From Bilabrum cf. latius (Eukaryota): a DNA stretch of 64,000 nucleotides. Position 1 is the stretch's first letter, and every line of letters starts with the position of its first letter. A model generated the notes under the pieces. The model was given only the letters and a program-made list of their open reading frames with translations. It was not told where the DNA came from and did not search any database. The stretch covers positions 186,001 through 250,000 of the forward strand of contig OZ237748.1 of NCBI GenBank assembly GCA_965178125.1, read 5' to 3'. Positions 3 through 55,579 of this stretch are shown here, in pieces. The position numbers and the translations under genes were made by a program.

Positions 3-1628
3 AACATCAGCGGGATGGTGACGATTGAGATGGCCAAGGCGGGAGACCAGCTGGTGGCTGCGGGGTCGGCGGACCCGGACGTGGCGGCACTCGTCACACT
101 GAACGACGACGGAATCAACGCCACCATCGCCGAAGGTTCCCTGGCGCACGTCGCGGCGGCCCTGCAGACCCTCGGGTTCCGGTCTACCGCCGGCCAGGTC
201 ATCCCCGTTGGCCCGAGGCGGGTGTTCGCCACGCTGCACGACGCGAGTCCCAGGGCAGTCGCCGTCAGCGGCGGTGCACCCGCGGTTGCAACCGTCGGCA
301 GGGGCGTGGCCGTCGTGCACGTGAATCAGCCCCCGGCGCTGGAGGTGTCGCTTGCCTCTGCGCTTGATTCGTACACCCGCGGAGACGACGCAGTGGAGCT
401 GGTGGGCCAGGGTGCCACGGTCACTCTCAGCGACCCCGACGACGAGTCCATGGCGAGGCTGGTGGTGCGAGTAGCCAGCGGGTGCAGGGCGGGCGAGGAC
501 GAGCTGTCCCTGGGGGAGGGAGCGCCGGCATCGCTGGAGGGCACCTGGGTCGGGGAGTCGAGTGATGCTGCAATGCAGTGCACCCTCACCGTCGCTCCTT
601 CCTCTGCTTCGGAGACCGCTCCAGTGGCGGACTGGATCGCGGCGATCCGATCCGTGATGTTCCGGTCTGCGCGCAGCCTCCAGGGCAGCAGCGTGGATGT
701 ATCCGTTGAGTTCAACATCACGGACGCAGCGTCGATCGGGGATGTGGCGACCAACGGGGGACGGCAGTCAGCCTCTGTTCCTGCCCCGGGTGCCGACAGC
801 CCCGTGGTGCTGACCGTGGTGCCCGTGCCAGCCCCGGAGGTGGAGCCCGTGCCGGAGGACAAGCCCGTCGAATGCGGCGGGGACGATCCCGAGGACCAGA
901 CCTCCATCGCCTCCACCTCGATCCCCAACGGCCAGCCCGTGCTGAAGATCGACCTGTCGATCCAGTCCGAAGACGCGCTCAACTGCGAGGGAACCAAGGT
1001 GCTGTCCAAGGTCATCATCGACAAGGCGTTCGAGGCAGAGGGGGTAAAGAAGCCCCCCCAGGTCGCCGTGCTGACGAGGGGGAGGAGGAGGAGGGGCAGG
1101 GGCAGGGCGCTTACTTCACTGGTCTCAGGCGGAGCTGTCGGATCTGTGACCGCCTCTTCCGCAAGCCTTCGCGCCCTGCAAGAAGCGGATGCGACGGTGA
1201 TCTTCGAGACGGACATCACCATCATCGCGCCGGTGGAGGACGAGGAGGTTGCAACCGCCGCCCTCGAGCGCCTCGTTGCCGCCGACGGGGATGGGTCTCT
1301 CGATGCTGCCATCAGGGCCGAGCCCGCACTCGTCACACTCATCACGGGCGAGGTGGAGGTGGAGATCGAGGAAGAGACGTCGGCTGTGGGCAGCGCCCAG
1401 GAGATGCTCGGTCGGCCGGAGGACGACGAGAGTGGCCTCGGCCTCATCATCGGGGTCGTGGTGGGCGTGATCGTGCTGCTGGCGGTGGCGGCTGCAAGCT
1501 GGTGCTACTGCCGCCGCCAGCCGTCTGCTTCCGAGACCAAGAAGGATTCGGAGGGACTCTCAGAGATTGTTCCCGGGTCAAGCAAGCTGGGAGGCAAGGC
1601 CGGTGCATCAGGGGCCGAGGAGGTGTAA
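3..1628 (+). CDS. 3' part of a type I membrane/cell-surface protein (cadherin/Ig-like beta domains, SEA-like juxtamembrane region, TM helix, short tail); 5' end probably outside the window
   Basis: Frame is open from the window start to TAA at 1626-1628. It has a hydrophobic segment GLGLIIGVVVGVIVLLAVAAASWCYC followed by RRQ, a cadherin-like NQPPAL...TLSDPDD motif and an RALQ loop like the other surface proteins here. Confidence 0.8.
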   Translation, partial: NISGMVTIEMAKAGDQLVAAGSADPDVAALVTLNDDGINATIAEGSLAHVAAALQTLGFRSTAGQVIPVGPRRVFATLHDASPRAVAVSGGAPAVATVGRGVAVVHVNQPPALEVSLASALDSYTRGDDAVELVGQGATVTLSDPDDESMARLVVRVASGCRAGEDELSLGEGAPASLEGTWVGESSDAAMQCTLTVAPSSASETAPVADWIAAIRSVMFRSARSLQGSSVDVSVEFNITDAASIGDVATNGGRQSASVPAPGADSPVVLTVVPVPAPEVEPVPEDKPVECGGDDPEDQTSIASTSIPNGQPVLKIDLSIQSEDALNCEGTKVLSKVIIDKAFEAEGVKKPPQVAVLTRGRRRRGRGRALTSLVSGGAVGSVTASSASLRALQEADATVIFETDITIIAPVEDEEVATAALERLVAADGDGSLDAAIRAEPALVTLITGEVEVEIEEETSAVGSAQEMLGRPEDDESGLGLIIGVVVGVIVLLAVAAASWCYCRRQPSASETKKDSEGLSEIVPGSSKLGGKAGASGAEEV

Positions 1629-3112
1629 TGGGCGAGCAGTGGATAGGGTGCAGGTGGATCTGTTTGGGCGGAATAAACGGATCCATCATCTCATCGTGTC
1701 GCGGCGAGCAGCCGACGGCAGACGCGGGCATGTGTCGTGCGGATGGCCCGGAAATCGGTGGCAACAGAGTTTGACTCAGCCTTTTTGCCCGATTCGTGAT
1801 GGGTGTATCCGTATTAACTTGTAAGGGAAGGACCAGGAATCGGTGGCAACTGAGTTTGACTCAGCATTCTTGCCCGATCCACTCTCGGTTGGTTCCAACG
1901 CCCGTTTGCTCACTTTGTAAATGTTACAAGAATCTAGATCTAACCAGGCATAAGTATAAATCCGCATCATGCGTGTGTCCTCTTCGACTCTGGCAAGCCC
2001 CTCAGGCACGACGAGGACTCGCGCTGGACACATCGTTTGGGGGGGTCGAAAAATTGTGTGGCGTGATAGATTTGAAGGAAATCAATGATAGGTGAACAAG
2101 GCGTGCGGGGTGGATGGAGCGGGAGGCACAGACAGGGCAGGAATGGGGAAGGGGGCGGTCTGACGCCGCGGTCACCGTCCGTAAATAACGTATTGAAATA
2201 ATCACACACAACAAAACTTATCCAAAGTTCTTCAACTTTCGGCACCGGCACCCGGGTCGGCTTGAGCGAGTTGCCCTTGCGCTACTCCAACATCCGCCCG
2301 GACCGCCAAGCCCTTTTTTCTGGTAACTCTTACCAAAACGTTACAATTGGCCATCCACAATATATGTACACGCAACCAAATCTGATTTATTGTGATGCCT
2401 GCATATGAGGCGCAAATCATAATCAGGACCTACAGCGCGAAGTGGTCATTAAATGCCTAAGAAAAAGCATATATTACTAATAATTAGTGGCATTCAAGCA
2501 GTTGGTGTTGTTCTAGAGGCATAAACGGTTTGTATGACTGGCCACAAGCGAGCTCGAGCACCCAGCTTTCTGTCAACGAACCTATCAAGCGAGAATAAGG
2601 CGTAGCTTGAAAGCAGGCGCCGAACATTTCTGCCTAAGGCATACTAAAAGCGGACTATTGAGGTCAAGGGGCTCCTTAGCCTTCTCTTTGGGGAGCAGGA
2701 TCTGGAGCACTGTATCTAGACTGGGCAGATGTTTTGTTGGGGTTGCGGGTAGTGGAAGGGCGCTCGTAGTGCCGGACACTGAGTAGCCATGCTGCTTTCC
2801 ATAACCGTTTGAAAGGTAACACTACTGTTTCTGAGTTGCAGCGATTTAGCTAGGGCGTGGACTATCTGCGTAGGACATCAGATCCATGTTAAATGCACGG
2901 AAGCGGATCAGAATCAAAGATGGTTTCGCTTGAATGGCATGCATTCACAGGGATTCTAGCAGTGTGGATGTAGTAGCTGCTGTATCGCATGATCTGGCGA
3001 GTCTTGTGCGGAAACCTCTCAACAGCAGTAGTCATGCATCGGCCTCCGGCGCAGGTAGCTAATTTCAGGTCAAGCATACCTTGTGGACAGCTTGTTTGGC
3101 ATAGGGCGAAAA

Positions 3113-11509: not shown

Positions 11510-14500
11510 ATGACGATCCTTACCCTTGCAGCAATCGTATGCATGTCGCAGTCCTCTTCGGCCCAGAGTCCGTTGCCCTCTCCCTCTCCCGCCGCTGCCG
11601 GTACCATCGTCTCATCTGCGACCAAGATCGCGCAGGGGCTCAGCGGATTGCCTTCCAGCTTTCCCCAGGCCGGGGACTCCTTCGGGCAGTCCGCACAGTC
11701 AATGGGGGATATGGACGGGGATGGAATTGAGGACATGATCGTGTTTCTGTACTCTGGAGATGGCGGGAGCGTCTCGAGTGCAGGCAGTTTTGCCATCTTG
11801 CACATGAACCGGGATGCCACCGTGAAGGACTTCCGGGAGTACTGGCTGGGAACCGGTGGTGGGATCGACGATTCGATCGCGGGACAGGCGGGCTCTCAGT
11901 TCGGTGAAGGCGCAAACCGCTTCGACCAGCCGTCGGGGGACGACCCTGACCAGCCTAGGGTATTCGTGGGGCAGCCGACGTACACTGCATCCTCGCTCAA
12001 TAACGTGGGTCGGGGCTTCATCCTCCGGTTCGATGGCGAGACTGTGACGAGTGTGACTCAGCTGTTCAACGGGCTGAACGGAATCCCGGCGGGGCACTTC
12101 AGCGCCGGGGGACGTTTCGGTTTCGCGTCCACCGGTGGATTGGGCGACGTGGACGGCGACGGGTACCACGATCTGGCAGCGAGCTCGATCCTCTCCTTCG
12201 CCGGCGTATCCCAGGGCGGCATCATCCACCTGTTCTTCCTAAACGGTGACGATACGGTCAGCAGCATCAAGCAGCTGTCTCAGGCAGCGGGCGGCGGATT
12301 CGACGGGCTTTCGTCCTCCGTGGAGTGGCTCGGCTACAGCATGGTCGCGATGACTCCCCGCGGCCCGGGCAGGAACGTCGACCTCGTGATCGGAGCAGCG
12401 AAGTCTGACGTCATCATTCTGTGCGGAATCGACACGTCGGGTGACGTGGTGAGCGGATCGATCGAGGTGCTGGACAACGGGCAGGAGGGCGTCCCCACAG
12501 GAACGTTCGTTTCGGGTTCGCGGGTCGGGGGCGGCCTCGCCAACTTGGGCGACATCGACGGCGACGGGCAGACGGACATCGGAAACGGGGCGTTTGTCTA
12601 CGACAGCGGGGGCAGCACGCTGACGGGCCAGAGCCACATCCTGTTCCTGAACCCCGGCGGCGAATCGGACGCCGTTAAGAGCGTTACCACGTTGACGTCA
12701 TCCACGTCAGGGCTCAGCGGAGTGCAGTCGGCGGGCAGCAGGGCTGGCATCGTGGGTGCCTTCGATGACCTCAACGGGGACGGGAGGGCGGATTTGATCT
12801 TCCGGGCGGCGCACGACACTACTGGAGGGTCCTTTACGGGCGCGGTGCTCGTGGCATCGCTCGGCGGACCGGCTCCTTCGCCCTCGCCGGCTCCTCAAGG
12901 AACGCTCGTCGAGGTCACGGTGATCGGCCAAGACGAGGGCGGGCTGCCGGTGACATTCCCCGAGGCGGGTGACCAGTTTGGCCACCAGGCAGCTGCGATC
13001 GGAGACATGGATGGGGACGGGATCGAGGACGTGGCTGTGTTCATTCAGCTCAGGGACGCCGGGGGAGTCTCGAGTGCGGGCGCTTTTGCCACCTTACATA
13101 TGAACCGGGATGCCACCGTGAAGGACTTCCGAGAGTACTGGCTGGGAACCGGCGGTGGGATCGACGATTCGATCGCGGGACAGGCGGGTTCTCAGTTCGG
13201 AGGTGGGATATGCCGGTTTGACCAGCCCCGGGGAACAGATGGGGACGAGCCAAGGCTTGTGGTCGGCCAGAACGATTACGACGACACGGGAGGTGCAGGG
13301 GCAGGGGCAGGACGGGCCTACATACTCAGGATGCATCCAACGAGCGGTGCGGTGACGAGCGTGATCACGCTGGGCAGCGGCTTGGGAGGTCTGCCTGCCG
13401 GCTTCCTCAGCAGCGGCGATCGATTTGGCGCCTCTTCCGCCGCACTGGGCGACATTGATGCCGATGGACTCAACGATATTGCGGTGGGGGCCTCTCGGTC
13501 TGACAGCGGGGGCAGCGACGGAGGTGCCGTGCACATATTCAGGATGAATGGGGACGACACGGTGAAGGCGCATTCCATCGTATCGCAGGCCACGGGCAAC
13601 GGCCTTGATGGCATCAGCCCGTTCATCGAGAGGATCGGCACTTCCGTTGCAGCCATGAGCCCGAGGGGCACAGGACGTGCGGTGGATCTCGCGATCGGTG
13701 CCCCGCTCTCTGACACAGTGGTACTGGTGGGAATCGATTCCAGCGGGCAGGTAGTGTCTGGATCAATCGAGGTGCTAGAAGACGGTGCGGGGGGCATTTC
13801 GTCAGGGACTATCACGGGAAGCACTCAATTTGGGACCGGCATCACAAGCCCTGGCGATCTTGACGGAGACGGGGTGAGTGACCTCGTGATCTCTGCACCT
13901 GCGGACGACACGGGCGGGGCCGATTCTGGGAAATCGATCGTTCTGTACATGAACGCGGGTACGGGAACAAACGCTGTCAAAGGAGTTCTTGAGCTCACTA
14001 TCGGCACTCTGGGTCTCACTGGGAAGCAGGAAACCAGCTCGCAAACAGGCGTGGCTGCTGCCTTCACGGACCTGAACGGAGACGGCAGACCCGCGTTGAT
14101 TTTCGGTGCACCAGCAGCGGCTTCCAACGGCGGACAGGTGCTTATTGCGACCATGGGTGGACCGAGACAGTCGCCTTCAACGAGCCCAACACCCAGCATC
14201 ACGCCCAGTACATCGCCCACGTCGTCATCGACAAGCACCAGCAGCGCGACACCCACGCCCAGTATCACTGCCAGCACCACTGCCAGCCCAAGCAACAGCC
14301 CAACAGCGTCAGTCTCCCCGTCAAGCAGTCCCAGCCCGAGCACCACGGCCAGCCCGAGCCCAACGAGCAGCAGCAGTCCCAGCCCGAGCACCACGGCCAG
14401 CCCGAGCCCAACGAGCAGCAGCAGTCCCAGCCCGAGCACCACGGCCAGCCCGAGCCCAACGAGCAGCAGCAGTCCCAGCCCGAGCACCACGGCCAGCCCG

Positions 14501-17500
14501 AGCCCAACGAGCAGCAGCAGTCCCAGCCCGAGCACCACGGCCAGCCCGAGCCCAACGAGCAGCAGCAGTCCCAGCCCGAGCACCACGGCCAGCCCGAGCC
14601 CAACGAGCAGCAGCAGTCCCAGCCCGAGCGCGACAGCCAGCACCAGTCCCAGCGGATCTGTCTCCCCATCGAGCAGTCCCAGCCCGAGCACCACGGCCAG
14701 CCCGAGCCCAACGAGCAGCAGCAGCCCCAGCCCGAGCACCACGGCCAGCCCGAGCCCAACGAGCAGCAGCAGCCCCAGCCCGAGCACCACGGCCAGCCCG
14801 AGCCCAACGAGCAGCAGCAGTCCCAGCCCGAGCACCACGGCCAGCCCGAGCCCAACGAGCAGCAGCAGTCCCAGCCCGAGCGCGACAGCCAGCACCAGTC
14901 CCAGCGGATCTGTCTCCCCATCGAGCAGCCCCAGCCCGAGCACCACGGCCAGCCCCAGCAGCAGCCCGAGCATGGGTTCATCTGCCAGCCCCAGCAGCAG
15001 CCCGAGCATGGGATCATCTGCCAGCCCCAGCAGCAGCCCGAGCATGGGATCATCTGCCAGCCCCAGCAGCAGCCCGAGCATGGGATCATCTGCCAGCCCG
15101 AGCAGCAGCCCGAGCATGGGATCATCGGCCAGCCCCAGCAGCAGCCCGAGCATGGGATCATCTGCCAGCCCCAGCAGCAGCCCGAGCATGGGATCATCTG
15201 CCAGCCCCAGCAGCAGCCCGAGCATGGGATCATCTGCCAGCCCGAGCAGCAGCCCGAGCATGGGATCATCGGCCAGCCCCAGCAGCAGCCCGAGCATGGG
15301 ATCATCTGCCAGCCCCAGCAGCAGCCCGAGCATGGGATCATCTGCCAGCCCCAGCAGCAGCCCGAGCATGGGATCATCGGCCAGCCCCAGCAGCAGCCCG
15401 AGCATGGGATCATCTGCCAGCCCCAGCAGCAGCCCGAGCATGGGATCATCTGCCAGCCCGAGCAGCAGCCCGAGCATGGGATCATCGGCCAGCCCCAGCA
15501 GCAGCCCGAGCATGGGATCATCTGCCAGCCCCAGCAGCAGCCCGAGCATGGGATCATCTGCCAGCCCCAGCAGCAGCCCGAGCATGGGATCATCTGCCAG
15601 CCCCAGCAGCAGCCCGAGCATGGGATCATCGGCCAGCCCCAGCAGCAGCCCGAGCATGGGATCATCTGCCAGCCCCAGCAGCAGCCCGAGCATGGGATCA
15701 TCTGCCAGCCCGAGCAGCAGCCCGAGCATGGGATCATCGGCCAGCCCCAGCAGCAGCCCGAGCATGGGATCATCTGCCAGCCCCAGCAGCAGCCCGAGCA
15801 TGGGATCATCTGCCAGCCCCAGCAGCAGCCCGAGCATGGGATCATCTGCCAGCCCCAGCAGCAGCCCGAGCATGGGATCATCTGCCAGCCCCAGCAGCAG
15901 CCCGAGCATGGGATCATCTGCCAGCCCGAGCAGCAGCCCGAGCATGGGATCATCTGCCAGCCCCAGCAGCAGCCCGAGCATGGGATCATCTGCCAGCCCC
16001 AGCAGCAGCCCGAGCATGGGATCATCTGCCAGCCCCAGCAGCAGCCCGAGCATGGGATCATCTGCCAGCCCCAGCAGCAGCCCGAGCATGGGATCATCTG
16101 CCAGCCCCAGCAGCAGCCCGAGCATGGGATCATCTGCCAGCCCCAGCAGCAGCCCGAGCATGCGATCATCTGCCAGCCCCAGCAGCAGCCCGAGCATGGG
16201 ATCATCTGCCAGCCCCAGCAGCAGCCCGAGCATGGGATCATCTGCCAGCCCCAGCAGCAGCCCGAGCATGGGATCATCTGCCAGCCCCAGCAGCAGCCCG
16301 AGCATGGGATCATCTGCCACTGCCTCTTTAAGCCCTAGTCCGAGCACAATGAGCACCCCAGCCGCAAGCGCGAGCCCGACACCTTCCTCAAGTTCACTCG
16401 TCACACCATCCCCACGGAACGCGACTTGCTTCGACGCTATACTCAACGGACAGGAAGGCGACATCGATTGCGGGGATCCAAGTGACAGCTCGTGTCCCGG
16501 GTGCACACAAGGCAGGGCCTGCACTTTCACCGCAAATTGCGCGGCTGGTCTCATTTGCGGGCAGCAGCAGCGAAGGTGCGTAGCTCCCGTGCAGCTAGCC
16601 GGCGCGTACGTAGCCGTGATTGGGCTCCGGATTGATGGTGTGGCGAGTGCGCAGTTCGTCGACGTCCTGCAGGCACCGCTGCTTGACGGCGTGATTTCAG
16701 CGACCGGCGCAGAGGCGGCTTCCGTGACTCGGATCGTGGAGCTTGGCTCCACCTCATCATCATCATCATCATCATCTTCGGCTTCCCGGTTCCTGGCGTC
16801 TGGTCTGGGTCAGGTTCTGCAAAGTCTTGCACCTCGTGCGCTGCAAGGCGCTGCACCCGGCGTGGAGGTTGACCTGCAGGCGAGGCTGCCGCCGGGTGCA
16901 GACGAGCAGAAGGCCAAGGAGGCTCTCTCTGCATACCTATCATCTAGCGAAACAGGAGCGGGCGAACCTGGGGCTGGAGGAGCGGGTGGAGGTGGAAGCG
17001 GTGAAGGCAAGGAGAACGGTAGCGGAAGCGACGGGGGAGGTGCCGGTGGGGGTGGTGCGGGCCAGCCGCCCGTGGAGGGTCCGAGCCTTCTTGCCGACCT
17101 GCGTGCGGCGGCCGAGTCCTCCGCCGCTATCGATTCCGGATCCATATAGGTTGCAACCGCGGAGGCCACCATCGAGACGGTGGTTCTGACGGCAGATGTG
17201 GTGATGGAGGAGGCCCCACCCTTGCCGAGCGGCAACCAACAAGGCGGGGATGGAGGGGGAGGTGGCGGTACTGGCACTGGTGCTGGCACTGGTGCTAGCA
17301 TTGGGGGTGATGATGACGATTCACTGTCTACTGGTGCGATCGCAATTCTGGCCGTGTTCGGTGCGGTCGTGCTGCTGGTGGTCGCCGTTGGATATTTTAT
17401 CGTGAGTGCCCGGCGGCGGGCGGTTCCCGGCAGAGCAGGCTGCTGCTCTTCATCTTCGAAGTACGCGGCCTCGCACGCACCCCATCCGTCCGGCTCGAAC

Positions 17501-17797
17501 GACGCGATGTCAAAGACGAGATCAACGGCAGAGATGCTGGAACGCCGGAGCACCCAGGAGGCGGCTCTCCCGAGGCGAAGCAACGCAAACGGAGATGATG
17601 GTGGGGTCAAGAGAACTGCACTGGACGACATCGGCGTTGATGTGAACGTGGACGACGATGATGAGGCGGGGCCTGGCAGCATGTACGCCGCTTTGGCATC
17701 CGGGCCGGGGGGGTCATCTGCCGCCTCCGCCTCTGCTTCTTGCCCCCACAAGGGGGGCGGGGACGACGGCGCCATCGATGACGGGGTGCACGTGTGA
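11510..17797 (+). CDS. FG-GAP (integrin-alpha-like) double beta-propeller surface protein with Ser/Pro/Thr stalk, Cys-rich + SEA-like module, TM helix and tail; 1 in-frame TAG
   Basis: Signal-peptide-like MTILTLAAIVCMSQSSSA; many GDxDGDG..D Ca-binding motifs in two duplicated halves. ORF 11402-17149 continues in frame across TAG 17147 into 17180-17797, which supplies the TM helix (AIAILAVFGAVVLLVVAVGYFIV). Ends in TGA. Confidence 0.88.
14320..16320 (+). repeat. Coding mucin-like stalk: 48-bp units (SPSPSTTASPSPTSSS) followed by ~38 36-bp units (SPSSSPSMGSSA)
   Basis: Directly visible in-frame tandem repeats. Confidence 0.95.
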
Positions 17798-37800: not shown

Positions 37801-38979
37801 ATGATCGGATGAATCCATTCGGCCCGTCCCAATTGCACCTGTTGCTGCTGCTGCTGCTGCTGCTCCCGCCACCGCGGCTTCAGCAGGTGAAGGTACATCG
37901 CTGCTCTGGACACCAGGGTCACTTGAAGACGCAGAAACACCCGCGCTGCCCCCTGGCCCCTCTTCAGGAGCACCCGCGCTGCCCCCTGGCCCCTCTGCAG
38001 GAGCACCCGCCGCAGATCCAGCGCCAGCGCCCGCACTCGTACCTGAAGCGTCAGGCGTACCGGCCTCGCGAGGTTCCGATCCACCAGCACGAGGCATGCC
38101 TGAACCTGCACCAGTCCCGACCACGGCCTCCTGTACGGCACCTTGCCTGCCCATACCATACATGCTGGGGGCAGGCACCCTAGCGAGCCGTTCGAATTCG
38201 TCCTGGAGCTCGAGATGTATGTCGCCCCCCTTCCGCACCGATGTGACGAGTGAGGCCACAACGGACCTGCTTGCTGGTCCCGCTGTGGTCGCAGTGACGT
38301 GGAGCTCCTCCAGCTGGGCATGAATCTCGCCAGCAGTGCCTATTTGGGGGACGGGTCCGCTGAACACGAGCTTGCGCAATTGCGTGGTTGTTGGCCTATC
38401 CGACATCACGACACGGAGCATGCGGCTGGCGGCGACTTCGTCCTTGGCTGATACCTCCAAGTCCGACAACCCCGGCAACTGCACGATGGTATGCATCGCA
38501 TCGGTCACTTTGTCAAGCGTACTGCCATCTTCAGAGGTGCAGGACGGCAGCGTGATGCCGACGCTCGTCAGCGAAGTGCAGTGAGTCGCCACGCGGCTCA
38601 GAATGAAGCCAGAGTGGGACAATGGTATCGAGTCCGACCCAATTTTAAATTCATCGAGGTTTGTCAGCATCGACATCGCCGGAAGTATCTAAAGAGCGGC
38701 TCCGGCTCGAAAGGTAGCGTCCATTTGAAAGCCACGAATGGTCTCCGGTTCTTGCAGAAGCAGCTACCTACAAAGTCCTGCGTCTGTAACATCATACTAT
38801 CCAATAAGTATCAAACAGAGTCCTCCGCGACCTCTTCTGCCGGAATGCGCGCTGAACACCAAGTGCGCTATCGATGACAACTTCACAGCACTCTGAACGC
38901 CTTGGAGAGCGTCATACTTTGCCACCGCGAAACTCTACTTCACACCATGTTCGTTGACGTCAACTATATCAAGCAACAT
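34788..38979 (-). pseudogene. Tandem paralog of the 30321-33764 gene with three frame disruptions (probable pseudogene or misassembly)
   Basis: MLLDIVDVNEHGVK*SFAVAK aligns to MDLPSIEIQQHGIERSFEMAK, and both end RRERLVMFRRxVHGGGGxS-TGA. Frame changes near 37390 and 35505, plus a 95-bp x6 expansion. Six in-frame TAGs (38935, 38797, 38764, 38689, 37032, 34920). Confidence 0.7.
36451..37008. repeat. 95-bp tandem repeat, ~6 copies, expanded from coding sequence of paralog 2
   Basis: CCTTTGGAAGCTCCCGGTCGAC... at 36451, 36546, 36641, 36736, 36831 and 36926. Confidence 0.97.
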
Positions 38980-39176: not shown

Positions 39177-42100
39177 TCACTCCTCCCCCCCCAGCCCATC
39201 CCCATCCCTACCCCCACCCCCATCCCCACCGCTCCCAGCCAGCTCCCCCTTGCTCAGCCCAAAGTACTCCTCAGCGGCAGCTCTCGCCTCCCCCTGCTGC
39301 TCCTCCCCTCCGCATCGCGACTCAAACGCGAGCCAGGCCCGGAACGCCGCCCTCGCCTTGCGCTTGGGCAGCTTCTGGGCGCACAGCCGACGCAGCACGC
39401 CCCTCGCCCGCGCCACCCCGTCCTCCCCACCGTGCTGTTCCTCCAGGTCTGCCCACGCCGTCCATGCATCCAGAGCTCTGGCGCGCGACTCCACCACCCC
39501 CTGCAGAAGCCTGCGCCCCCGCTCGCGGCTGCCCCCCAAACCGGAACCATCGCCCTTGAACTCGGCAGCGGCGGCCCGCAGCACCAGAGGCTGCCTGCAC
39601 CGCTTCGGCAGGCACCCAAGAGCGAACCGAAGCAGCAATCGGGCCCCGTCAGCGTCACCACGCCCGTACCGGTCACCGACCCAGCCCCACCAGAGACCCT
39701 CCCCCGTGGCAAGGTCACGTGATGACCCGGAATCGGAAGCGTGCGCCGTGCTCGGCTCCGCCGACGACGATGACGCGCCGGCTGCGGAACCGGATCCGGA
39801 TTGCGCGGCGCCGCCCTCTTCCCACGGCAGCAGCTGCTTCTGCCCCAGGCCCCCGTAGGCCCTGGCAGCCGTTGCGTACATTCCCTCTGCCTCGTCCCAC
39901 CTCTTGTTGTTCCGCAGGATGCCCAGCATGATAGCATAGGCCCTGCGGACGGGCACCTGCTGCAGGCATAGGGCGAATGCACGGCCGAGGCTCTGGGGCG
40001 TCCCGCTGGATGCCTCCAGTGCCAGCCTCGCCGTCCACACGGCCTCCCGCGCCGCCGCCGCTTCGTCCCCTCCCCTGAGTCTGAGACCGTCGCACGCGCG
40101 CTCCCCCACGGCCCGCGCCCCCTCCAGATCCCCCTGCGCGGCGCGATGTGACATCCAGCGGATCCATGCCTCACCGTTGCTCCGATCGGACATGGCCTGC
40201 TTCTCGAGATGCGCGTCTCGCTCGGACTGCTGCCCCCCGGCGGCGGCGGCGCCGGAGGAGGAGGAAGACGAAGATGACGAGTGCTTGCCCGCACCGGTGC
40301 CGCTGCTGCCGGCCTCGTCCTCGCTATCACCATCCTCATCACTATCGCCATCGCTGTCACCGTCGCCTCTATCCATGGGCGCCGCTCCGGCCCTGCCAGA
40401 GGAAGCAGTCGCCGCGAGCAGCAGGCCGCCGGCAGCAGCTCCCGACAACTCGTCCTCCTCATCTTCATCTTCATCTTCGTCGCTGTCGTCATCCGAATCG
40501 GAGCCGGACTCAGACTCGGAATCAGAATCGCTGTCCTCCATCGCGGACTGCCCCTTGGCACTCGTCACACCAGTCGCGCCGGAAGACCCGCCCGCCGACG
40601 CACGCACGCCCACGGCACGGATCGTTTCCTCGTCCTCATCCTCACCGGCCCCGTGAGGCATCAGCGATCGGAGCACCAGACGAACGGCGTCGCCGGTCTT
40701 GGTACCGCCAGGCAATGCACCCGCCCCGCCGCTGCCCAGCGGAACCCGGACCCGCGCGGCGCCGCGAACACTGGTTCCGCTGCTCCCCAGGGAACACACG
40801 GCCTCTGCCCAGCGCGGCTTGCCCCCCCCACCTCCGCCGAGGCTGACGATCCTGCCCTCCAGTGCGCGGCCGGTTGCAACCAACTCCTCGGCGAGAGCGC
40901 GCGCGGCGCCGGTGGACGCGCCCTTGGTTCCGCTATCACCAGCACCACCAGCCGCTGTCCCTGCCCCGTCGCCGCCCATGGCCCCTGCGGCCTCTGCTGC
41001 CCTGCGGAGCGCAGACGGCCGCAGGTTGACGTCGGCGCGCGGCGCCGATTGCGGAACATCATCGGCGTCGCCCGATGCGGCGCCGGGAGTCACGGACAGC
41101 ACCACCCCCCTGACGACCCGCCCCGGAGCGAACGTTCGCTGAGGTTCGCTGACAAACCCGTCGCCGAGGTCCTTGAGCCTGCAGCGCCCCACCACACCGC
41201 CGGGCATCTGCAAGAAGCACCCCTTGGCACCCGTCCCTGTGACGAGTGCGGTCACCGGCCGCCCCGGACGCACCATGTCACGGGCCTCCTTCCCCGCGAT
41301 CGTCGCCAGCGCCCCGGCTGCATGAGCCGCTCGGTCTGCATCGTCAGCGGCTCCGGCTGCAGCACCATCTGCTGCTGCCGCTGCCGCCGCCTTGACTAGA
41401 TCGACGCGGATAGAGACGCGGGGCGGCGGGGCGGAGCGCGCGGGAGATTGCGCGGCGCCCTTTGCGGAACCTCGCTTCCCCTTGCCCTTCCCCTTGGCGG
41501 CACCCGAGGCAGGCGCCGGCGCCTGGTGTGACGAGTGCAGCACCACGGCCAGCACCCACACGCCGGTTCTTTGCGCCTGCACGCCCATCGTGCCGGGTGC
41601 CAGCCTCAGGGCCCCCAGCACGCCGGCGGAACCGCCCTTCCTGCCCAGTTCCGCCCAATTGCGCGGCGCCGCTGCGTCGCCCGCCCGCAGGATGGCCATG
41701 GAGCCGTACCCCGCCGACACCCTGACGGATCCGGAGCCCTTTTTCACGGCCGCGCCGCCGCCCGCAGACGTAGCCGCAGCCGCGTCGTCCTCCTCGTCGT
41801 CCGATCCTGCGGAACCGTCGCCGGCGCCGCGCATCGCCCTCTGCTCCGCCCGCGCCATCCGCACCATGTCGTCCAGCGAGGTGACTCCGATCGACGAAGA
41901 GGAGGAGGAGGCAGCCGACGATCCGGAGCCGGAATTGCGACCCTTCCCGCTCGACCCCTTCCCCTTGGCGGATCTCGCTGCGGAACCTCGGCCCGGCGCC
42001 GCGCGCTCAGGCAGCACCCGCGCGAGCAGCACCTGCCCGGGCGCGGAGAGTGTCTCCCGCCGCAGTGCCATGCACCTTGCCAGCCACTCGGCCAGGCCAT

Positions 42101-43465
42101 CCCCACCATTATCCTTCTCCTCCTCGTCGGCCATAGCGAATCGGGCGGTGGCGGGTCCAGAAGGGGGCGCGGGCAGTGCCTTGGAGGCCAAATCGATCGA
42201 GCCGTCTGCAGCACCGCCGCTGCCGCCGCCAGCCGACTTTGTATTCTTCCCCTTGCCCTTGCCCTTGCCCTTGCCCTTTGCGGAGCTCGAGGCGCCCTTG
42301 CTCGTGTCCAGGAACGGCGCCGCGCTCAGCGGAACCATCAGGCGCACCTGGATTGCGGAACCGACCGGCGCCGCGCGGAAGCAGCTGCCGGCCACGTCGG
42401 ACAGCCGCACCCTGCCCTCGCACTCGTCATCCAAACCGCCGGCCAGACCCGCCCCGAGTGTACCCCCACCAGCCGACGATCCACTCGTCACACCGGAGGG
42501 AACAGGCAGGTCCTCCGGCGCCACCAGCACCCGCCGGCCCCCGCTGCCAGGGAACAAGCACGCAACCACGGCGCCCCTCGCCCGATCCAGGCCCTCCACC
42601 ACAGCGCCCACGAGCGAGCCAGCGGGATGCGCGGCGCCGGTTCCGCACGAAGCCAGGGCGGCCTTGGTCTTCCACACCGCCGCGAAGCCCACCTCGATCT
42701 CGGTCACGAGCTGCTCGCCGGCGCCGCGCACCGCCAGCGGAACCGCCCCAAGCACCTTGAGCTCGCCGGACGCGATCTCGTCGCCCGCCGCCAGCCCGCT
42801 GCAGAACCGTGCGATGCACCCGCGGCTCGCCTTTTCGAAGGCCTTGCCCTTGCCGTGTCCCACCGCGCCCGGCAGGCGCATCACCACGCGGAACCGGCGC
42901 CGCGCATCTTCGTCCTCGCCCACCGCCAGCCCCGGAATCCTCAAGACGACCTCTCGGGTGTCCAGCGGCGCCGCGCCATCCCCCGTTGCGGAACCTCCAC
43001 TCGTCAGCAGCTTCCTTCCGGACCGCCCCGCCACGATAGAAGCGGCTTTGACCAACGTCCCCGGGATCATCAACCCAGCCGCATCCAGGGCATTGGGAGC
43101 AGCAGAAGCGCCAGAAGCACCGCTGTGCTCCGCTGCGGTGAAGCCGTTCAGCAATCCAACAGAGCTGGTTCCGTTCCCGCTTTTGCTGGCCGACGGTGAG
43201 GCCGAAGCACTCGACCCGGAGCCGGAAGAGGCACTCGTCACACCAGAGGACGCGGGCAGCGCCTTCTTGGCAGCGTCCACCGCCCGCTCGAGCGACACGA
43301 CGGCGTCACCGGTGTGACGAGTGCGCCCTGCACCGGACACCCGCGCGCTGCCACTCTTGCCCGATGGCGATGACGTTGATGACGATGAAGCGGGGGGCAT
43401 TGCGGGCAGAGCCAAAGGGGGGCGGATCGATCCAACGGCGTCGTCCTCTTCCTCGTCGTCTTCTG

Positions 43466-43496
<31 letters not shown>

Positions 43497-46400
43497 GTCA
43501 GACATGTTGGACTGACCCTTGCCCTTGCCCTTGCCCTTGGGATCCTCCTCTGCCTCCTCCTCCTCATCACCGGAGTCATCAGACCCGGAATCGGAATCCT
43601 CCTCCTCCTCTTCGGCACCCGGGCCCAGCGAGGTCTGAGGGAACATAAACACGGGACTGCCCACACTCGTCACACCGGAAGCACTCGTCACGCTTCCGCC
43701 GGCACCCGAGGACCCCGCCATCCGCACGAGGCCCCAAGCATCGCCGCCGCCCGCACTCGTCACACGCACGGCCGCCAGTGCGTGCGCCGCACCACCGTGC
43801 CATGCACCCATCGAGTCACCCCCGGCCCACAGAATCCTTCCCTCCATCGCAGCACCAGCAGCAGCAGACTCAGCCTCACCGTCTTGCTGCAGGGGGCCCA
43901 TGGGCTTGGGCGCCGACTGCCCCTCCGGCACCAGCGCCACCACGAGCCCAAGCGCGGGCGGTTGCAACCTCCCGAGGTCCTCTGCCCCCTCCGGCCTCCA
44001 GGTGGTCGCAACCTCATCCTCATTTTCTTCCTCTTCATCTTCGCGGATGGCCTTCACGCCCACCACCACGGCCCTGACCCGAGTGCCCCCCTCGGGCACT
44101 GGATCGAAGCTGGGGCCCTCGCTACCCCTGGATCGCACCGTCAGCGCAAGGCGGCGACTACCCTTCTTGCCCTTCTTGTCCTTGCTGGTGGAATCGAACA
44201 GGCACAGCTCAGCAACCACCTGATCTTCCTCTTCATATTCCTCATCCTCGCCCCCGTCTGCCGCACCCGGAATCGGAATTCCCCCGATGCTCGTCAGCCG
44301 CAGCCGGTCGCAACCACCACCACCCCCACCAGCACCGCCCGAGGTTGCAACCACCCCCTCCACCGAGCATCCCAGCAGCAGACCGCTCACCAAGTCAGCC
44401 CCGCCGATCGCTGCCAGCCGAGCACCAAGCCAACCATCGCCGTCCTGGTCCGCCTGAGGTGCGGCCCCTGCATCCATGGCCGGCTGCAGGCTCTGCTCGA
44501 GGCGGGCCATGAGCGGGTTGACGCTGGCGCTGGGCGAAGCATCATCATGATGACCCGCATCATCATCGCCGTGATCAGATGACTCGGAGCCGGAATCACC
44601 CTCCTCGTCCTCCTCCCCATCACCATCACTCGTCATCATTTTCTGCTTGGCCGCCATCGCAGCTGCCATTGCCTGTGCCAGCCCGGGCCCCTCCTCGTCC
44701 TCGTCCTCGTCCTCATCTTCCTCTTCACCGCTCCCGCTTTCTTCATCTTCATCTTCATCTTCATCATCCTCGCCGTCCTCATCGCCGCCCGGCCCCATGC
44801 CCATGCCCATCAGAGACCCCAGCCCGGCCCCCGCTCCACTCGTCACATCCTATCCCCGCAGAGCCGCCGCCAGCCGCACCTCGCACAGTGCACTGCCCAT
44901 CACCTCCTCGTCGAAGGAACTTTCGCCGAGGTTCGCCGCACCTCCGCCCAGCAGGGCGGCCAGCATGCCACCGGCACCAGACGACAAAGCACCAGCACCA
45001 GCACCAGCACCCTTCCCATTATCATTCGTCACACCCGCGAGCGCCCTCACAGCGGCCCACACACCCGCGGAGCACAGGCCCAGCCTGTCCACATCAGCGC
45101 CCTTTAGTGCATCACTCAGGTGCCTCAGAGACTGCTGCCCGGCCTTCTTCGAGGCCATTGCCTGCGCTGCCAGGAGCAGGGGGTTGGGGCCGCCCATGGG
45201 CAGCGAGGGCGCGCCGTCCTCTTCATCTTCATCTTCGTCAGAGTCGTCGGATCCGGAAACGGAATCATCGTCCTTCTTCTCTTCCTCCTCACCGTCGTCA
45301 TCGTCGTCCTGCATCGCAGCCGATCCACCGGCGGGTTTGGACACCCCCTCCTCGCCGCTATCTTCATCTTCATCCTCCTCGCTGTCATCACCGTCTCCGC
45401 CACCCATGGAAATGCCCAGGCTGCCCAGATCCAGCCCAGGCCCGGACATCATGCTCACCGCCTTGCTGACGGCACGTGCCGCCGCGCTCAGCACCACGGC
45501 GCCAGCCGCGTCCGCCTGCCGGAGGGCGTCAACCGCCTCACCCACCACCTGGTGTGACGAGTGTGATAGGTGTGACGAGTGGGACAGGGTCCGCAGGAGG
45601 GCAGCGTGGACGCTCTCGGCTCTGCAGTCCGCCATCCACCTCGGCTGGTTGGTGTGACGAGCGCCCTTGCCCTTCCCCTTGCCCTTGCTCTTGCTCTAGG
45701 CTACCGATGACTCGGCAGGACCGTCCCCGCCCCTGCTGTTCTGCATGGTTACAACCGCCCAGCGCCAGCTGCCGACCAGCGGACCCGCCTGACTGCCGTC
45801 CGGAACCATAAAGGGGGGGCACAGCGCGGAGGCGCCGCCCGCCGTCGATACGAACGTCTCAACAGAGGGGCTTGAAGAAGCAGACGGAGATGATCCGGAG
45901 CTGGAATGGCTCCCACGCCTGTTCCCCTTCTTCTTCTTCGACCCCCCTTTAAGCACGTCAGCCGCCCGCTCCTTCCCCCTCCCCTTGCCCTTGCCAAGCT
46001 CGATCGCACGAGACCCGGTCACCCACACGGGCACCAGCTATCCCGGCCGGGGCACAAACCCGGAATCATTAACCACATTGCCACCGGACACCCGCAACAG
46101 CCCCAGGGCCGCAGCGGCCGAAGCCAGCGCCCCCCTCGCGCACACGAGCCCAACGGACACATGCACCGAGGACCCGTCCGCCAGGATGGTCTCCACCCTA
46201 GAGGGCACCTTGCGCCTCGTGAGCACAAGCAGAGGTCGGGACCCGAGAGCCGCACCGTCGTGCGATGCACCCGGCGCACCACCACCGCCGAGCACCCGTC
46301 CCAGGGCAGGCGACACGAACCCGGAGCCGGAAGCGGCCAGCGCCAGCAGCCCGGCGAAGGCCGCCTTGGAGGCAGCGGGGTCGTCGGCGAGGCCCCACCA

Positions 46401-49400
46401 CGGGACCTCGCACCACTCCGAGTGTGACGAGTGCGATGGGTTATTCTCGGTACTCCAGCCCGTCACCTTGCACAGCAGCACGATGGAGCTGTCCTCATCT
46501 TCATCTTCGTTATTGTCGCCGCCTGCACCAGCCCCGGATGCGGCCTGCTTGCCCTTGCCTTTGCCCTTCCCCTTGGGCTTTCGGCTGTGTGTCCATCTGC
46601 CCACCACCACGGAGCCGGCGGCCGCAGCAGCGTCGCCCACCGCCAGACCCGATGCCCCTGGCTTGCACTCGTCACGATCTCCACCGGTAGAAGCACCGCC
46701 AGAGGCAGCAGATGAGGCGGCCGCCTTTGCCGCCTGGGTCTTCTCGCCGGGCTGCACCGACAGGTGGGTGGACAGCCAGAGGCGGGGGATGCGCCTACCA
46801 GTTTGACCACCCTGACCACCGCCGGATTGACCACCCCCGTCGGAGATACCCGTGAGTCTCACCCTCACGGTGCTCCCGATCGGCTGCAGCTCAATGGCCT
46901 GGGCCATCTCCCGCTGGGTGAGGGGCGCGCTGGCCTTGCGACCGTCGCGCTTCTTGTCTTCCTCTTCTTGTTCATCACCGTCATCACCGGCTGCCTGGAT
47001 TCGGAGCCACCTACTCCTGACCTCCCTCGCCGGGATAATACCCCGCACGCCGCCGAAGAAGGTGACCCACGCCCCCGCGCGCCCGCAGCCGGTCACGTAC
47101 CCGGTGCGGACCACCGGCGCACTCGTCACGCTACCACCACTCGTCACACCATCATCTCCACTGAGGGCCGCCCTCGCCTGCTCCCAGGACACCAAGCACT
47201 CGTCATTCGCCGGCCGCATCGCCACGCTCCTGTCCCCTGGCCTGAGTCGGGGGGCGGCCCCGTCCTCCTCTCCAAGGCCAACGAGGGAGGCCTTGAGTGT
47301 GACGAGTGCGCGCAGCCCCTGTCCCTTGTTCCCCTTGCCCTTGCTGTGCCTCTCCTGCTCCACCTCCAGCACACGAGCCCACACCGCCTTGCCCTTCTTC
47401 ATCAATGCAGCCGCTCGCCCGCCCACACCCCCTCCCGCGGCGCTAGCAGCGTCAGACACGTGCGGAGGTGTGACGACTAAAGGCAGCCGGGGGCCCCTGA
47501 CCATCGTCCCGTCGGGTCCTTCGATCCACTGGTCCGTGTACAGCCGGATCGCCTTGCCCGGACGCCCCTGCTCGGCCACAAGCGCCCGCACCAGCTGGCC
47601 CGGCTTCAGGTCACCCAGGCCGGTCGCTACCTCATCGTCCTCCTCGGCGGCCCGCCCCGCCAGGATCCGCCCTTGTTCCCTGGACCTCACCCCCCGCAGC
47701 CGCAGCAGCCCCTCGAAGCCCATGGCACCAGACACGCGCGCCACCACGGCCGTGCCCGGGGGCGCCTCCCGCAGAGCAGAGACCGCCTGTGCCGCCGCCT
47801 CTAGCTTTCTAGAGGACTCGCCCGTCCGCGCGGCGTCCGAAGCAGAGCTACCCGCCAGCGCGGCCGCCTTCTCCTTTGCGTTGGCAGCCTTCTTTCCGCC
47901 CCTTCTTGCCCTCCGACCGGCACCTGTGGACGCGTCCGCTGCTGCTGCTGCTGCTGACGCCTTGCCGTCGGTCTTGTCGGACTTGCTCTCGGCTTTCTCC
48001 TCGTCGTCATCCGCGACAGCTGTATCCTCATCCTCATCATCGGACTCAGATTCAGAATCAGAAACGGAATCCGAATCGGAGTCGGAATCACTGTCCTCCT
48101 CCTCCTCCTCCTCCTCCTCCTCCTCATCATCATCCTGCATGGCCTTGGCAGCCGACACCTGCGCATCCTTGGACCCAGACGATGGCGCTGATGTCGACGA
48201 CAATGAAGAAGCTACAGCGGCTGCAGCACTCTACTTCTTCTTCTCCTTACCCTTGCCCTCGATCGCGCGAGATCCGGCCAGTGCAGTGGCGGGCACGACC
48301 CCGGCGCTGCCCCAGCCCCCCTCCCGCACCCACGCCGGGAGCTGATCGAACACACTCGTCATACCTGTACCATCACCTGCAGTTCCCTCAGACGGCCGCG
48401 AGCGCTTGGTACCCAGCTTGGGCACACTCGTCACACCACCTGGACCTGCCTTGTCGCCGCGCTTGGACCCCCCCGAGGATGACGATGACGGCGATGCGTC
48501 GTGCAGCACGCACAGCTCCGTGCCGGTCTCACTCGTCACACCTTGGCCGCCCCAGGACACCACGGCCCTGCGGCCATCCACGTGCCTCGTCACGGCGCCG
48601 CGCACAGCGGAACCTTTCCCGAGCATGGCTTCCGCCAGCTGCTGCCCCCTCAGGCAGAGCACGTGGGGGGAGGCCGAGAAGCACACGCGCCTCGAGGCGG
48701 GGTCGATGGCCGCAACCCGGAGCCACAAATCGCGGGGGCGGCGCAGGGGCGGAAGCTCCGGCCAGGCCGCTTCCGAGCTTGTCGTAATGGAGTGTGACGA
48801 GTGAGATCCATCCGTCCTCCTCCGCTTCTTCGCATGCTGTTGCCCGCCAGCGCCGGCATCGTCGGATTCGGAGCCTGAGTCATCATCGCTGCTGTCGTCA
48901 TCATCACCTCCGAGCTCCAACGCACTCGTCACATCGGCATCGGGCTGCCTCAGCACGCCTGGCTTGGGGACGGGCGGCGCGTCGGCCATCTCCTTGGGCA
49001 GCTCTTGTTCCCTGGCGCGGGCAGCAGATACCCTGGCGGCATGCGCTGCATCGGCCCTGTCGCACCTCTTTAGCCACCTGCGGATCTCTTCCTCCCAACC
49101 GGCTTTGGCCACCCCGCCCAGGTGCCAGGCGCTGACGGTGCCCACCAGCGCACCCCCGCACACGCTCACCCACACGCCCCCCTTGCACAGACCCCCCACG
49201 CGGCCGCGCACTAGCTGGCCCGGCTTCACGCTGCCCCATCCCTGCACCCCGCCAAGCGGAACCGCCGCGGCGCCAAACCGGCTGGGCCCACCCTTCCCCT
49301 TCCGCTTGCCCTTGGCTGCAGCTCCATCGGATCCGGAGTCCCGCGCGATCTCGTACCCTCCCGTCCGGACCTGCAGCACAGCCGTCCCGTCTCCCCTCAC

Positions 49401-50788
49401 ACTCGTCACACGGGCACCCAGCAGATACCCCCCCTCCGTCAGGGGGTTCCCCTGCCCGTCTGTCCCGTCAGTCGCTGAAAAGGGAAGGAACCCCCGGAGG
49501 CCCCTGCCGCCCGACGCACCTGCCCCCGCACCACCGTTCCCTGCACCCTCCCCCGCCCCGACCCCCAGATCCACCACCCACCCCTCGTCCTCGGCCGACA
49601 CCAGCTGCCCCCCCACCGGCGTGCCAGCCTCCACGTACGCCCTTGACAACCCCATCGCCAGCCGCGCCGGGGCCAAACTGCACGCTACTTCCAACCCGGA
49701 AGAACCCCTCGACCCGCTGGCGGCCTGTGCCCTGGCCGCCGCCGCCCCCTCCTCGTCCCCTCTGGCAGCCAGGAGCGCGGCACGGGCCTCTGCCGCCTGA
49801 GCCGCGGCCGCCGACTTGGGCTTGGGAGCGAGCGTGGAGGCCCGGAGCAGCTGCCCGGGGCGGAAGAATGCCGTGAGCGGGGCGGGGCCGCGTGCATCTG
49901 CGCTTGGCCTGGATTCATGATCCTAATCGTCCTCATCGTCCTCTTCTTCGCTTTCATCCTCTTCTCTCGCATCGTTTGCAGATTCCGCACCCCCCTTGCC
50001 CCTGCCCCTGCCCCTGCCCCTGCCCCTGCCCCTGAGCCATCCCCTGACCCTCCTCCTCACCACGGCGCCGCACTCCTACAGGGTCACCCTGCCCTTGATC
50101 CCAAAGGGGAGGGACAGCGTCAGGGACCGGGAGCCCACACTCGTCACACTCGCCAGGACCAGAGTGCCGGGCCGGATGGTCTGCGATGAGCAATCAGGGG
50201 AGGTCAACGGGGGGAGTGCGGTGGTCGCGGTACACAGGCAGATTCACAGCATCGCAAGCATCAGGGCAGCAACGAGTGGTTGTACACGTATATCACGCTA
50301 GGCATTGCCTTTATCTTCCTCACCTTCGCCTTGAGGACCCACGCCTCCCTGGGTGCCTGCACCCCGGCTCGCCTTGCCACCGACAAGGGGCCCTGGGTCT
50401 TCCCCGCCAATGATGATGATGACGATGACGATGATGCGATTAATCCAGCTCCTCTTGCATGACCTCTGCGGCTTGACTCGGTGCGGGCTTCCATGCCCAT
50501 GCCTCCGCCACTGCGGCTGCTGTCTGCCTGCTGCTCGGCTCGGGAGCTGGAATTCGACTTTCGCCTGCCGCTGCCTCTGGAACGGCGCTGCGACTGCTGC
50601 TCCTGCACTTGGGAGTTTGCATCAGCTCCGGCAGTCCCGTCGGTTGCTGCCGATGCTGCGGGGCCGCTGCTTCCAAACAGCCTGGGAATGTGCTCGAGCG
50701 AACTGGAGGCAGCTGGCTTCTTCGGCTTTGTGCCGGGCATAGGCACCGCCCGAGATAGTCCTCTCGGAAATGATGACTGCTGATCCAT
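39177..50788 (-). CDS. RRP5: rRNA biogenesis protein RRP5/PDCD11 homolog, ~3820 aa, join(50324..50788,39177..50180); 6 in-frame TAG
   Basis: N-terminal SSFPRG; multiple S1-like motifs (IRPGTLVLASV...LSLPFGIKGRV, FFRPGQLLRA, GCFLQMPGGVVGRCRLKDLGDGFVSEPQRTFAPGRVVRGVVLSV); C-terminal HAT repeats (WIRWMSH...ARAVGERA, FRAWLAFESRCG). Exon 2 is one frame broken only by TAG at 50076, 49923, 48231, 46038, 45696 and 44850, and ends in TGA. Confidence 0.92.
50181..50323 (-). other. Spliceosomal intron (143 nt, phase 0) in RRP5
   Basis: Donor AAG|GTGAGG; acceptor CCCCTGATTGCTCATCGCAG| with a CTGAT branch-like site. Removal joins AWVLKAK to TIRPGTLVLASV, restoring the frame and the first S1 motif. Confidence 0.85.
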
Positions 50789-55531: not shown

Positions 55532-55579
55532 GTGTTCGCATGGGCCCATGATGGGAGGCGCCAACACGGGGATGACAAT

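Follow-up and report, generated by a model that had tools for sequence, protein, structure and literature searches.

The 64-kb stretch of Bilabrum cf. latius DNA analyzed here (GenBank contig OZ237748.1, positions 186,001 to 250,000; the window) carries long and largely intron-free genes whose domains are eukaryote-like (RCC1, TIG, FG-GAP and the S1 domains of RRP5), and over four of these genes a non-palindromic 12-mer, CACTCGTCACAC, whose reverse complement differs from it, is written again and again. There are 22 exact copies in the window, 13 on the plus and nine on the minus strand, where 100 dinucleotide-preserving shuffles gave an expectation of 0.00 and a maximum of 0. Allowing up to two mismatches the number of sites rises to 44 (22 exact copies, 12 that differ at one position and 10 that differ at two) against 5.10 expected (standard deviation 2.29, maximum 13), and once tandem arrays are masked CACTCGTCACAC is by far the most repeated complex word in the window. 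A first-pass annotation, made from the letters alone, had described a 12-mer highly over-represented in coding DNA in both orientations and several frames, and this description holds; all 21 coordinates that it listed are correct, one copy (28303, minus strand) had been missed, and the near matches it named are real, with four of them displaced by one or two bases (they begin at 12042, 33023, 38241 and 41237, and not at 12044, 33024, 38243 and 41239). CACTCGTCACAC is a genuine iterated DNA word, a sharp unit of 11-12 bp that is independent of orientation and superimposed on protein-coding sequence.

All 22 exact copies lie within open reading frames (ORFs): 17 in an RRP5-like gene, two in ORF 3-1628, two in an FG-GAP gene and one in an RCC1 gene. 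The RRP5-like gene (39177..50243, minus strand) is a single frame broken only by TAG, a codon read as sense in this organism (see below), and it ends with TGA. Its 17 copies, from 40559 to 50138, are packed into about 11 kb, the last of them falling inside the frame once this is followed up to 50243, and the earlier attribution of seventeen copies to RRP5 was right. The best database relative of the encoded protein is named RRP5 by its source (E 1.3e-13), Pfam S1_RRP5 matches at E 4.4e-5, which is below its gathering score, and local alignments to RRP5 homologues cover the C-terminal repeat region (5e-14) and several S1 domains. A protein search with this query returned only three distant RRP5 proteins and no close relatives. 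The gene is about twice the usual length of RRP5 because of long linkers that are acidic, Lys-Gly-rich or Ser-rich. At its 5' side the frame is closed by a TGA at 50244-50246 with no ATG ahead of the first S1 domain, and the first in-frame ATG, at 49655, lies downstream of sequence that aligns with homologues; translation may in fact begin in a different frame, or on the far side of a 5' intron.

Within the RRP5-like gene the word is read as GVTSA at 40559..40570 and 43232..43243, GVTSG at 42482..42493 and at 47138..47149 (in the linker directly before an S1 domain), GVTSV at 43664..43675 and 48425..48436, GVTSE at 48530..48541, RVTSA at 43754..43765, RVTSV at 49400..49411 and SVTSV at 50138..50149, all of these being plus-strand copies; the minus-strand copies are read as HSSH at 41526..41537, 45552..45563, 45570..45581, 46422..46433 and 48792..48803, as RTRHT at 43312..43323 and as ALVTL at 47297..47308. 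In the other host genes it is read as ALVTL at 88..99 (plus strand, sense) and 1327..1338 (plus) of ORF 3-1628, as SLVTP at 16395..16406 (plus) of the FG-GAP gene (11402-17797) and as SCDEW at 28303..28314 (minus) of the RCC1/TIG gene (21626-29863), the sole copy in that frame and a reading to be added to the GVTS, HSSH, TRHT and LVT already recognized at first pass. The remaining copy, at 17792..17803 (minus), gives GTG TGA on the plus strand. It had been proposed to supply the TGA stop of its gene, and it does provide the first non-TAG stop of the ORF starting at 11402, on condition that the TAG at 17147-17149 is sense. Altogether the 22 readings comprise ten of the type xVTSx, five HSSH, four xLVTx, and one each of TRHT, CDEW and GTG TGA. 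With respect to their host genes ten copies are sense and 12 antisense, and no orientation bias is seen.

The protein sequences do not account for this abundance. When synonymous codons were shuffled within each gene, keeping the proteins and the per-gene codon usage, 1000 shuffles gave a mean of 0.108 copies (maximum 3) against 20 observed, and for the RRP5-like gene alone 0.08 against 17. Since the enrichment survives an amino-acid-preserving shuffle, the very test that the first-pass annotation had set for its own refutation, the constraint on CACTCGTCACAC is on DNA and not on protein, as it had proposed; neither amino-acid sequence nor codon usage explains the excess. The word also imposes non-preferred codons on its host: in the RRP5-like gene 13 of the 14 VTS tripeptides are encoded GTGACGAGT, with AGT accounting for 32 of 379 Ser codons, and all five HSSH are encoded by exact copies of CACTCGTCACAC. 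Both peptides are inflated in the host protein, VTS occurring 14 times where about 0.8 would be expected from residue counts. Selection at the protein level for short peptides such as GVTS and HSSH, with the identity of the DNA as a side effect of codon bias, would fit the strong bias in the use of frames, but one fixed set of letters is read in five frame-and-orientation combinations as five unrelated peptides, and in a further one as a stop, and its codons are not the preferred ones; we consider this explanation highly improbable and effectively excluded. From a reading of their contexts, and not from a count, most copies appear to sit in low-complexity linkers.

The 12 copies with a single mismatch extend the same picture. 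Nine of them differ from CACTCGTCACAC at positions 10-12, so that the mismatches are not uniform along the word: six at position 12 (12042..12053, minus, TVTSV; 33023..33034, minus, ALVTS, in a position paralogous to the next; 38241..38252, minus, SLVTS; 41237..41248, minus, ALVTG; 44837..44848, plus, DVTSG; 48923..48934, plus, DVTSA), two at position 11, both synonymous (43682..43693 and 47120..47131, both plus and read as SVTSA), and one at position 10 (48353..48364, plus, GMTSV). The other three differ at position 7 (16638..16649, minus, GVASA), position 3 (45023..45034, plus, GVTND) and position 2 (45652..45663, minus, GARHT). An 11-base core, CACTCGTCACA, is present in 28 copies in the window, and this core together with mismatches skewed to one end would look like what is expected of a binding site with a soft edge. 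The alignment of the 22 exact copies, in which invariance of the 12 positions is given by construction, shows flanks that are nearly free of information; position -2 is C in 14 of the 22 copies, and position +1 is never A. Three pairs of copies lie exactly 18 bp apart from start to start (43664/43682, 45552/45570 and 47120/47138), and in these pairs the word is retained while the three 6-bp spacers are mutually unrelated. A half-site TGACG is present inside GTGTGACGAGTG of CACTCGTCACAC, which bears out this part of the CRE-like core suggested at first pass. The consensus of cAMP response elements (CRE) and of activating transcription factor (ATF) sites, bound by basic leucine zipper (bZIP) proteins, is the palindromic TGACGTCA or an extended M26-type core; the full CRE palindrome is absent, and the label is a weak one. 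A tandem or microsatellite array was also considered and rejected, the Tandem Repeats Finder (TRF) rows in the window being without CACTCGTCACAC and its copies being spread over 50 kb.

Discrete units with unrelated flanks and a length that is a multiple of three could have been inserted, and a tiny mobile or templated insertion would be a 12-nt unit pasted into breaks. It might, for example, be the copy of some plentiful template, RNA or DNA, made during repair, or else the end or footprint of a transposon, and with its 12 bp and its five open frames out of six it would survive in genes. Such an origin agrees with the exact copies outnumbering those with one mismatch, with odd peptides such as HSSH recurring five times in one protein, with the apparent location of most copies in linkers longer than those of other RRP5 proteins, and with second copies at a fixed offset of 18 bp. 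However, no target site duplication, terminal inverted repeat or longer parent repeat family was found around CACTCGTCACAC among the 22 aligned copies and the repeat families of the window, and as the flanks are random up to the edge of the word, nothing was seen that would mark a transposon end, a miniature inverted-repeat transposable element (MITE) or an excision footprint. The use of frames is also too skewed: among the antisense copies in ORFs (exact and one-mismatch copies together, leaving out 17792), 17 of 18 use the VTS frame and the remaining one the CDEW frame, which argues against insertion in random phase. The frame that gives a stop is used once only, as a real stop, and the Cys/Trp frame is likewise used once.

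A more direct test of insertion comes from the S1 domains, where three of the 22 sites can be compared with other RRP5 proteins, most of the other copies appearing to lie in linkers that do not align. In the first S1 domain the copy at 50138 (SVTSV) is ungapped against two homologues, P0003 and P0004 (E 4.6e-4 and 0.004), and 33 residues of this piece match positions 1-33 of Pfam S1_RRP5, weakly (E 0.15). The copy at 49400 (RVTSV) is in an S1 strand and is ungapped across the motif, in a longer alignment to P0004 that does have gaps elsewhere (E 1e-5), and the copy at 47297 (ALVTL) is ungapped against P0005 in the conserved closing, C-terminal strand of an S1 domain (E 0.008). An insertion of 12 bp would require a gap of four residues, and there is none at the three sites, which argues that these copies overwrote existing codons. 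The case that the copies at 50138, 49400 and 47297 arose in this way and not by insertion is good but not conclusive. With the lack of any 12-bp presence/absence difference in the public runs described below, we regard insertion as an unlikely origin for the word.

This organism has at least four iterated words, of which CACTCGTCACAC is the most frequent. The words GCGCGGCGCC and GGTTCCGC are enriched about 15-fold over the codon-aware null: GCGCGGCGCC has 17 copies in the window where the codon shuffle gives 0.93, and the RRP5-like gene holds 15 of these; GGTTCCGC has 16 copies where it gives 1.15, every one in the RRP5-like gene. They lie mostly in the 3' third of that gene, a cluster at 39784..42999 holding 14 of the 17 copies of GCGCGGCGCC and 14 of the 16 copies of GGTTCCGC, with further sites at 18209, 48594 and 62071. 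The two words usually go together, in any order and orientation: a full GGTTCCGC lies 0-9 bp from GCGCGGCGCC at 11 of the 17 sites, and at three more a GGTTCCGC that is one base short lies 4-7 bp away. The composite at 62071, which has such a shortened GGTTCCGC, is outside any listed ORF. The fourth word, GGTTGCAACC, is a perfect palindrome found at six sites (284..293, and at 1247, 17149, 40872, 43960 and 44343) where simple arithmetic gives about 0.06, with two more sites that are without the last base; all sites are in genes that also bear CACTCGTCACAC. At 17149 the palindrome shares bases with the TAG that is read through in the FG-GAP gene.

The region between 38.5 and 50.6 kb of the window is also present in the assembled contigs of public sequencing runs from four studies, four of which runs were compared at the level of contigs; none of the nine runs that hold the stretch is an RNA run. 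Contig pieces with zero differences to the window cover 14 (X2), 15 (X5) and 14 (X6) of the 17 copies in the RRP5-like gene, in runs of three studies. In total 15 of the 17 are letter-perfect in at least one run, and the other two are in pieces with a few differences elsewhere. The best-matching run may be the source sample of the window itself, and the support is to that extent not fully independent. An artefact of assembly, adapters or sequencing is contradicted by these pieces and by the presence of the word in an independent metagenome contig; such an origin is scarcely credible and is effectively excluded, as is a local assembly fault, the other outcome that the first-pass annotation had allowed might undo its claim. 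At the covered CACTCGTCACAC sites no gain or loss of 12 bp was seen in the four runs, all of them from strains nearly identical to the window and hence of little power in this respect. Indels at 45562-45568 and 47132-47136 are in or beside the spacers of two of the 18-bp pairs and may stem from other loci. Differences between runs at 49392, 49398 and 49425 flank the copy at 49400 with zero inside it, and are too few to weigh.

Metagenomes were searched with a 10-mer-pair pattern from CACTCGTCACAC, alongside scans of the prokaryotic genomes of GTDB and the viral contigs of IMG/VR; at least 125 metagenome stretches were returned and 124 loci examined. Among the metagenome matches listed only one is relevant, a contig of 2399 bp (L043) with one open frame that contains four in-frame TAG and without other similarity to the window. 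It carries six exact copies of CACTCGTCACAC as 15-bp tandem units, and it encodes an acidic low-complexity protein in which (GVTSD)n units correspond to CACTCGTCACAC plus three bases. GCGCGGCGCC, GGTTCCGC and GGTTGCAACC are also there, the last only as a 9-base core. The recurrence of all four words argues that they belong to a lineage and not to one gene, and the contig also places this lineage in environmental data. The 13 high-copy metagenome loci that were inspected are almost all satellites of CACTCGT-type heptamers, and the few other metagenome loci holding CACTCGTCACAC (such as L008) are other unrelated repeats. The GTDB scan gave 26 loci and the IMG/VR scan two, and those inspected are unrelated satellites or tandem repeats; three of the loci (L144, L147 and L148) are one 19-kb contig, binned in a bacterial metagenome-assembled genome, with 11 copies of CACTCGTCACAC in a CA/CT-rich satellite unrelated to the window; simple satellites elsewhere are thus also able to give rise to the word. 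A literature text search for the CACTCGTCACAC string returned primer matches only, in 9 papers, supplementary files being outside the search, and a further search, on 12-bp motifs dispersed over coding regions, yielded no relevant work.

Tandem forms of the word in L043 bring up the main rival to recognition of CACTCGTCACAC by a protein, namely neutral cryptic simplicity, a concept reportedly due to Tautz and colleagues in 1986. By this account the word is a by-product of a genome prone to repeats: a few short seeds are spread over low-complexity coding DNA by replication slippage, by template switching and by ectopic conversion of short tracts, and the copies are exact because they are young, and without function. 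It is a real possibility, if one well short of even. Minisatellite arrays are abundant in the window (30 TRF rows), low-complexity repeats fill the RRP5-like gene, where 17 of the 22 copies are, and scrambled short words are locally in excess there, GCGCGGCGCC and GGTTCCGC being nearly confined to it; the 15-bp array of L043 and the three 18-bp pairs in the window are what such seeding might leave, and the mismatch spectrum, in which 10 of the 12 single differences are transitions, fits a young burst. On the other hand slippage produces direct, adjacent copies that add length, whereas CACTCGTCACAC is found in both orientations, in four unrelated genes and another contig, with sharp edges and flanks unrelated right up to them, and three of its copies replace conserved codons with the length unchanged. 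Nor would neutral seeding predict that in the 18-bp pairs the word stays exact around unrelated spacers, or that nine of 12 mismatches are at one end.

Most features of CACTCGTCACAC match reports on bacterial uptake sequences in coding regions, and the analogy with these and with HIP1 drawn at first pass is apt. The uptake signal sequences (USS) of Pasteurellaceae and the DNA uptake sequences (DUS) of Neisseria are short fixed words of roughly the length of CACTCGTCACAC. Like them, CACTCGTCACAC is over-represented hundreds to thousands of times, largely in coding regions, and like them it would seem to arise in place by substitution. Uptake sequences accumulate by biased DNA uptake in competent bacteria, whereas the host of CACTCGTCACAC is a eukaryote, and we know of no uptake-and-recombination cycle in eukaryotes. 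One study describes uptake sequences that inflate the tripeptides they encode and favor poorly conserved positions and particular reading frames (PMC2817400). CACTCGTCACAC likewise inflates a tripeptide (VTS) and is biased in frame, on top of an over-representation in coding DNA that goes beyond codon and amino-acid usage, and the apparent location of most copies in linkers loosely recalls the preference for poorly conserved positions. According to another report, uptake sequences are orientation-biased within genes (PMC2346458), in contrast to CACTCGTCACAC. In an organism with such eukaryote-like genes (RRP5, RCC1, TIG and FG-GAP) an uptake system is not to be expected, and we do not file CACTCGTCACAC as a member of the uptake sequences; it may only work similarly.

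HIP1 (GCGATCGC) of cyanobacteria is 15- to 300-fold over-represented within and between ORFs, and is argued to be kept by selection and not by neutral processes, no peptide or RNA role having been found for it (PMC5861425). It contains sites for two orphan methyltransferases, according to a further paper (PMC4390886). The companion word GGTTGCAACC resembles HIP1 in being a perfect palindrome; CACTCGTCACAC, non-palindromic and eukaryotic, differs from this palindromic and bacterial word. Among nematode motifs the X-enriched MEX motif is 12 bp long, and these motifs are mostly in the non-coding DNA of one chromosome region, whereas every copy of CACTCGTCACAC is in coding sequence. Pairing-centre motifs of 11/12 bp are clustered and recruit sequence-specific zinc-finger proteins (ZIM/HIM-8), which gives such words a precedent in eukaryotes (PMC11605055), and CACTCGTCACAC is like them in clustering locally, within the RRP5-like gene.

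Our preferred reading is that CACTCGTCACAC is a recognition word for a putative sequence-specific DNA-binding protein, spread by selection or by biased repair, a plausible interpretation to which we give somewhat less than an even chance. New copies would arise in place by substitutions or by the repair of very short patches, and a directional force acting on double-stranded DNA would then favor them. The likeliest such force would be recognition by the putative protein: gene bodies densely set with binding sites might be selected for, or repair or gene conversion might be biased towards CACTCGTCACAC. Tolerance of the protein would decide which copies survive, chiefly in the disordered linkers of GC-rich genes and in addition in beta-strands whose sequence happens to fit. 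Candidate roles further downstream would be the organization or pairing of chromosomes, the marking of the organism's own genes, or the control of recombination.

Several observations weigh against recognition by a protein. The word is known from 64 kb and one 2.4-kb contig, and one gene holds 17 of its 22 copies. A single recent burst followed by neutral decay of about 2-4% would also account for the copy numbers (22 exact, 12 with one mismatch and, with two, about 5 more than chance gives), so that exactness by itself is no proof of constraint, and the one-mismatch copies divide into two synonymous and ten non-synonymous ones, the same as random expectation. In the ungapped alignments behind an origin in place the homologues are distant and the E-values weak, and confidence is low in the AlphaFold model made for the first 338 residues of the RRP5-like protein (mean pLDDT, predicted local distance difference test score, 43.4). 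To our knowledge, no eukaryotic mechanism drives a 12-mer to high copy number inside genes. In that low-confidence model both word-encoded pentapeptides are in strands (residues 28-36, pLDDT about 61-66; residues 277-282, pLDDT below 50), a placement too poorly supported to carry weight, and on short pieces all Pfam S1 matches are sub-threshold.

A broader proposal, which we consider rather unlikely, is that this eukaryote possesses a small DNA vocabulary (CACTCGTCACAC, GCGCGGCGCC, GGTTCCGC and GGTTGCAACC) that is written into its own genes by a sequence-specific drive, overwriting codons and visibly reshaping proteins as it goes. The drive would be either a bias in repair or conversion, or selection acting through dedicated proteins that bind the words. 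It would be a nuclear counterpart of uptake sequences and HIP1, and might mark or organize the organism's own chromatin. That certain words are extremely abundant inside genes is a recognized puzzle for bacteria, with uptake sequences, HIP1 and Chi as examples, and there such words are tied to bacterial processes; we are aware of no report of one from nuclear coding sequence in eukaryotes. If the abundance of CACTCGTCACAC proved to be genome-wide and conserved, it would point to a new sequence-specific system acting on eukaryotic gene bodies, one powerful enough to prevail over codon preference and to make unusual peptides recur in an essential protein of ribosome biogenesis, and would offer a clean natural system for the trade-off between constraints at the DNA level and at the protein level. 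If the copies are instead the young neutral debris of a slippage-prone genome, they would be a striking but ordinary instance of cryptic simplicity.

The genes described above depend on the reading of TAG. Between the TGA at 50244 and the TGA at 39177 the RRP5-like frame contains six in-frame TAG (50076, 49923, 48231, 46038, 45696 and 44850). Taking TAG as sense fuses ORFs into 21626-29863 (plus), with 2745 residues and 24 TAG, into 30321-33764 (minus), with 10 TAG, and into 39177-49655 and beyond. The eight long ORFs together have 49 in-frame TAG, their three TAA and five TGA are terminal only, and TGA and TAA are plentiful throughout the other two frames. Alignment of the RCC1 repeats to one another shows TAG three times in the V-Q-I column, where Q is present in eight of the 10 other repeats, and TAG in the YG-Q-LG column, where 11 of 12 other repeats have Q; single TAG codons are in a Y and in an S column. 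TAG in mid-frame and at Q columns points to a sense codon, most likely glutamine: judged from these frames and columns, the organism reads TAG as sense, probably as glutamine, while TAA and TGA stay stops. Here TAG alone is reassigned, as in NCBI table 15, and the eukaryote concerned is GC-rich and has few introns; literature searches for a GC-rich lineage that reassigns only UAG gave no obvious match.

Of the remaining genes, those at 30321-33764, 35468-36484 and 37111-38979 (all minus) are neighboring paralogues of a family without a Pfam match; they are TAG-rich, have a low GC content at third codon positions (GC3 about 0.55-0.62) and carry zero exact copies of CACTCGTCACAC. No RNA genes were found in the window by ARAGORN or Rfam. 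One of the large minisatellite arrays, at 51282-55532, has a 43-bp unit repeated 98 times at 96% identity and is probably non-coding, since its period is not a multiple of three. Other large arrays consist of 81 bp x 35 (3945-6798) and 69 bp x 22 (18962-20493), and an array of 36 bp x 38 (14948-16319) codes for a Ser/Pro-rich stretch.

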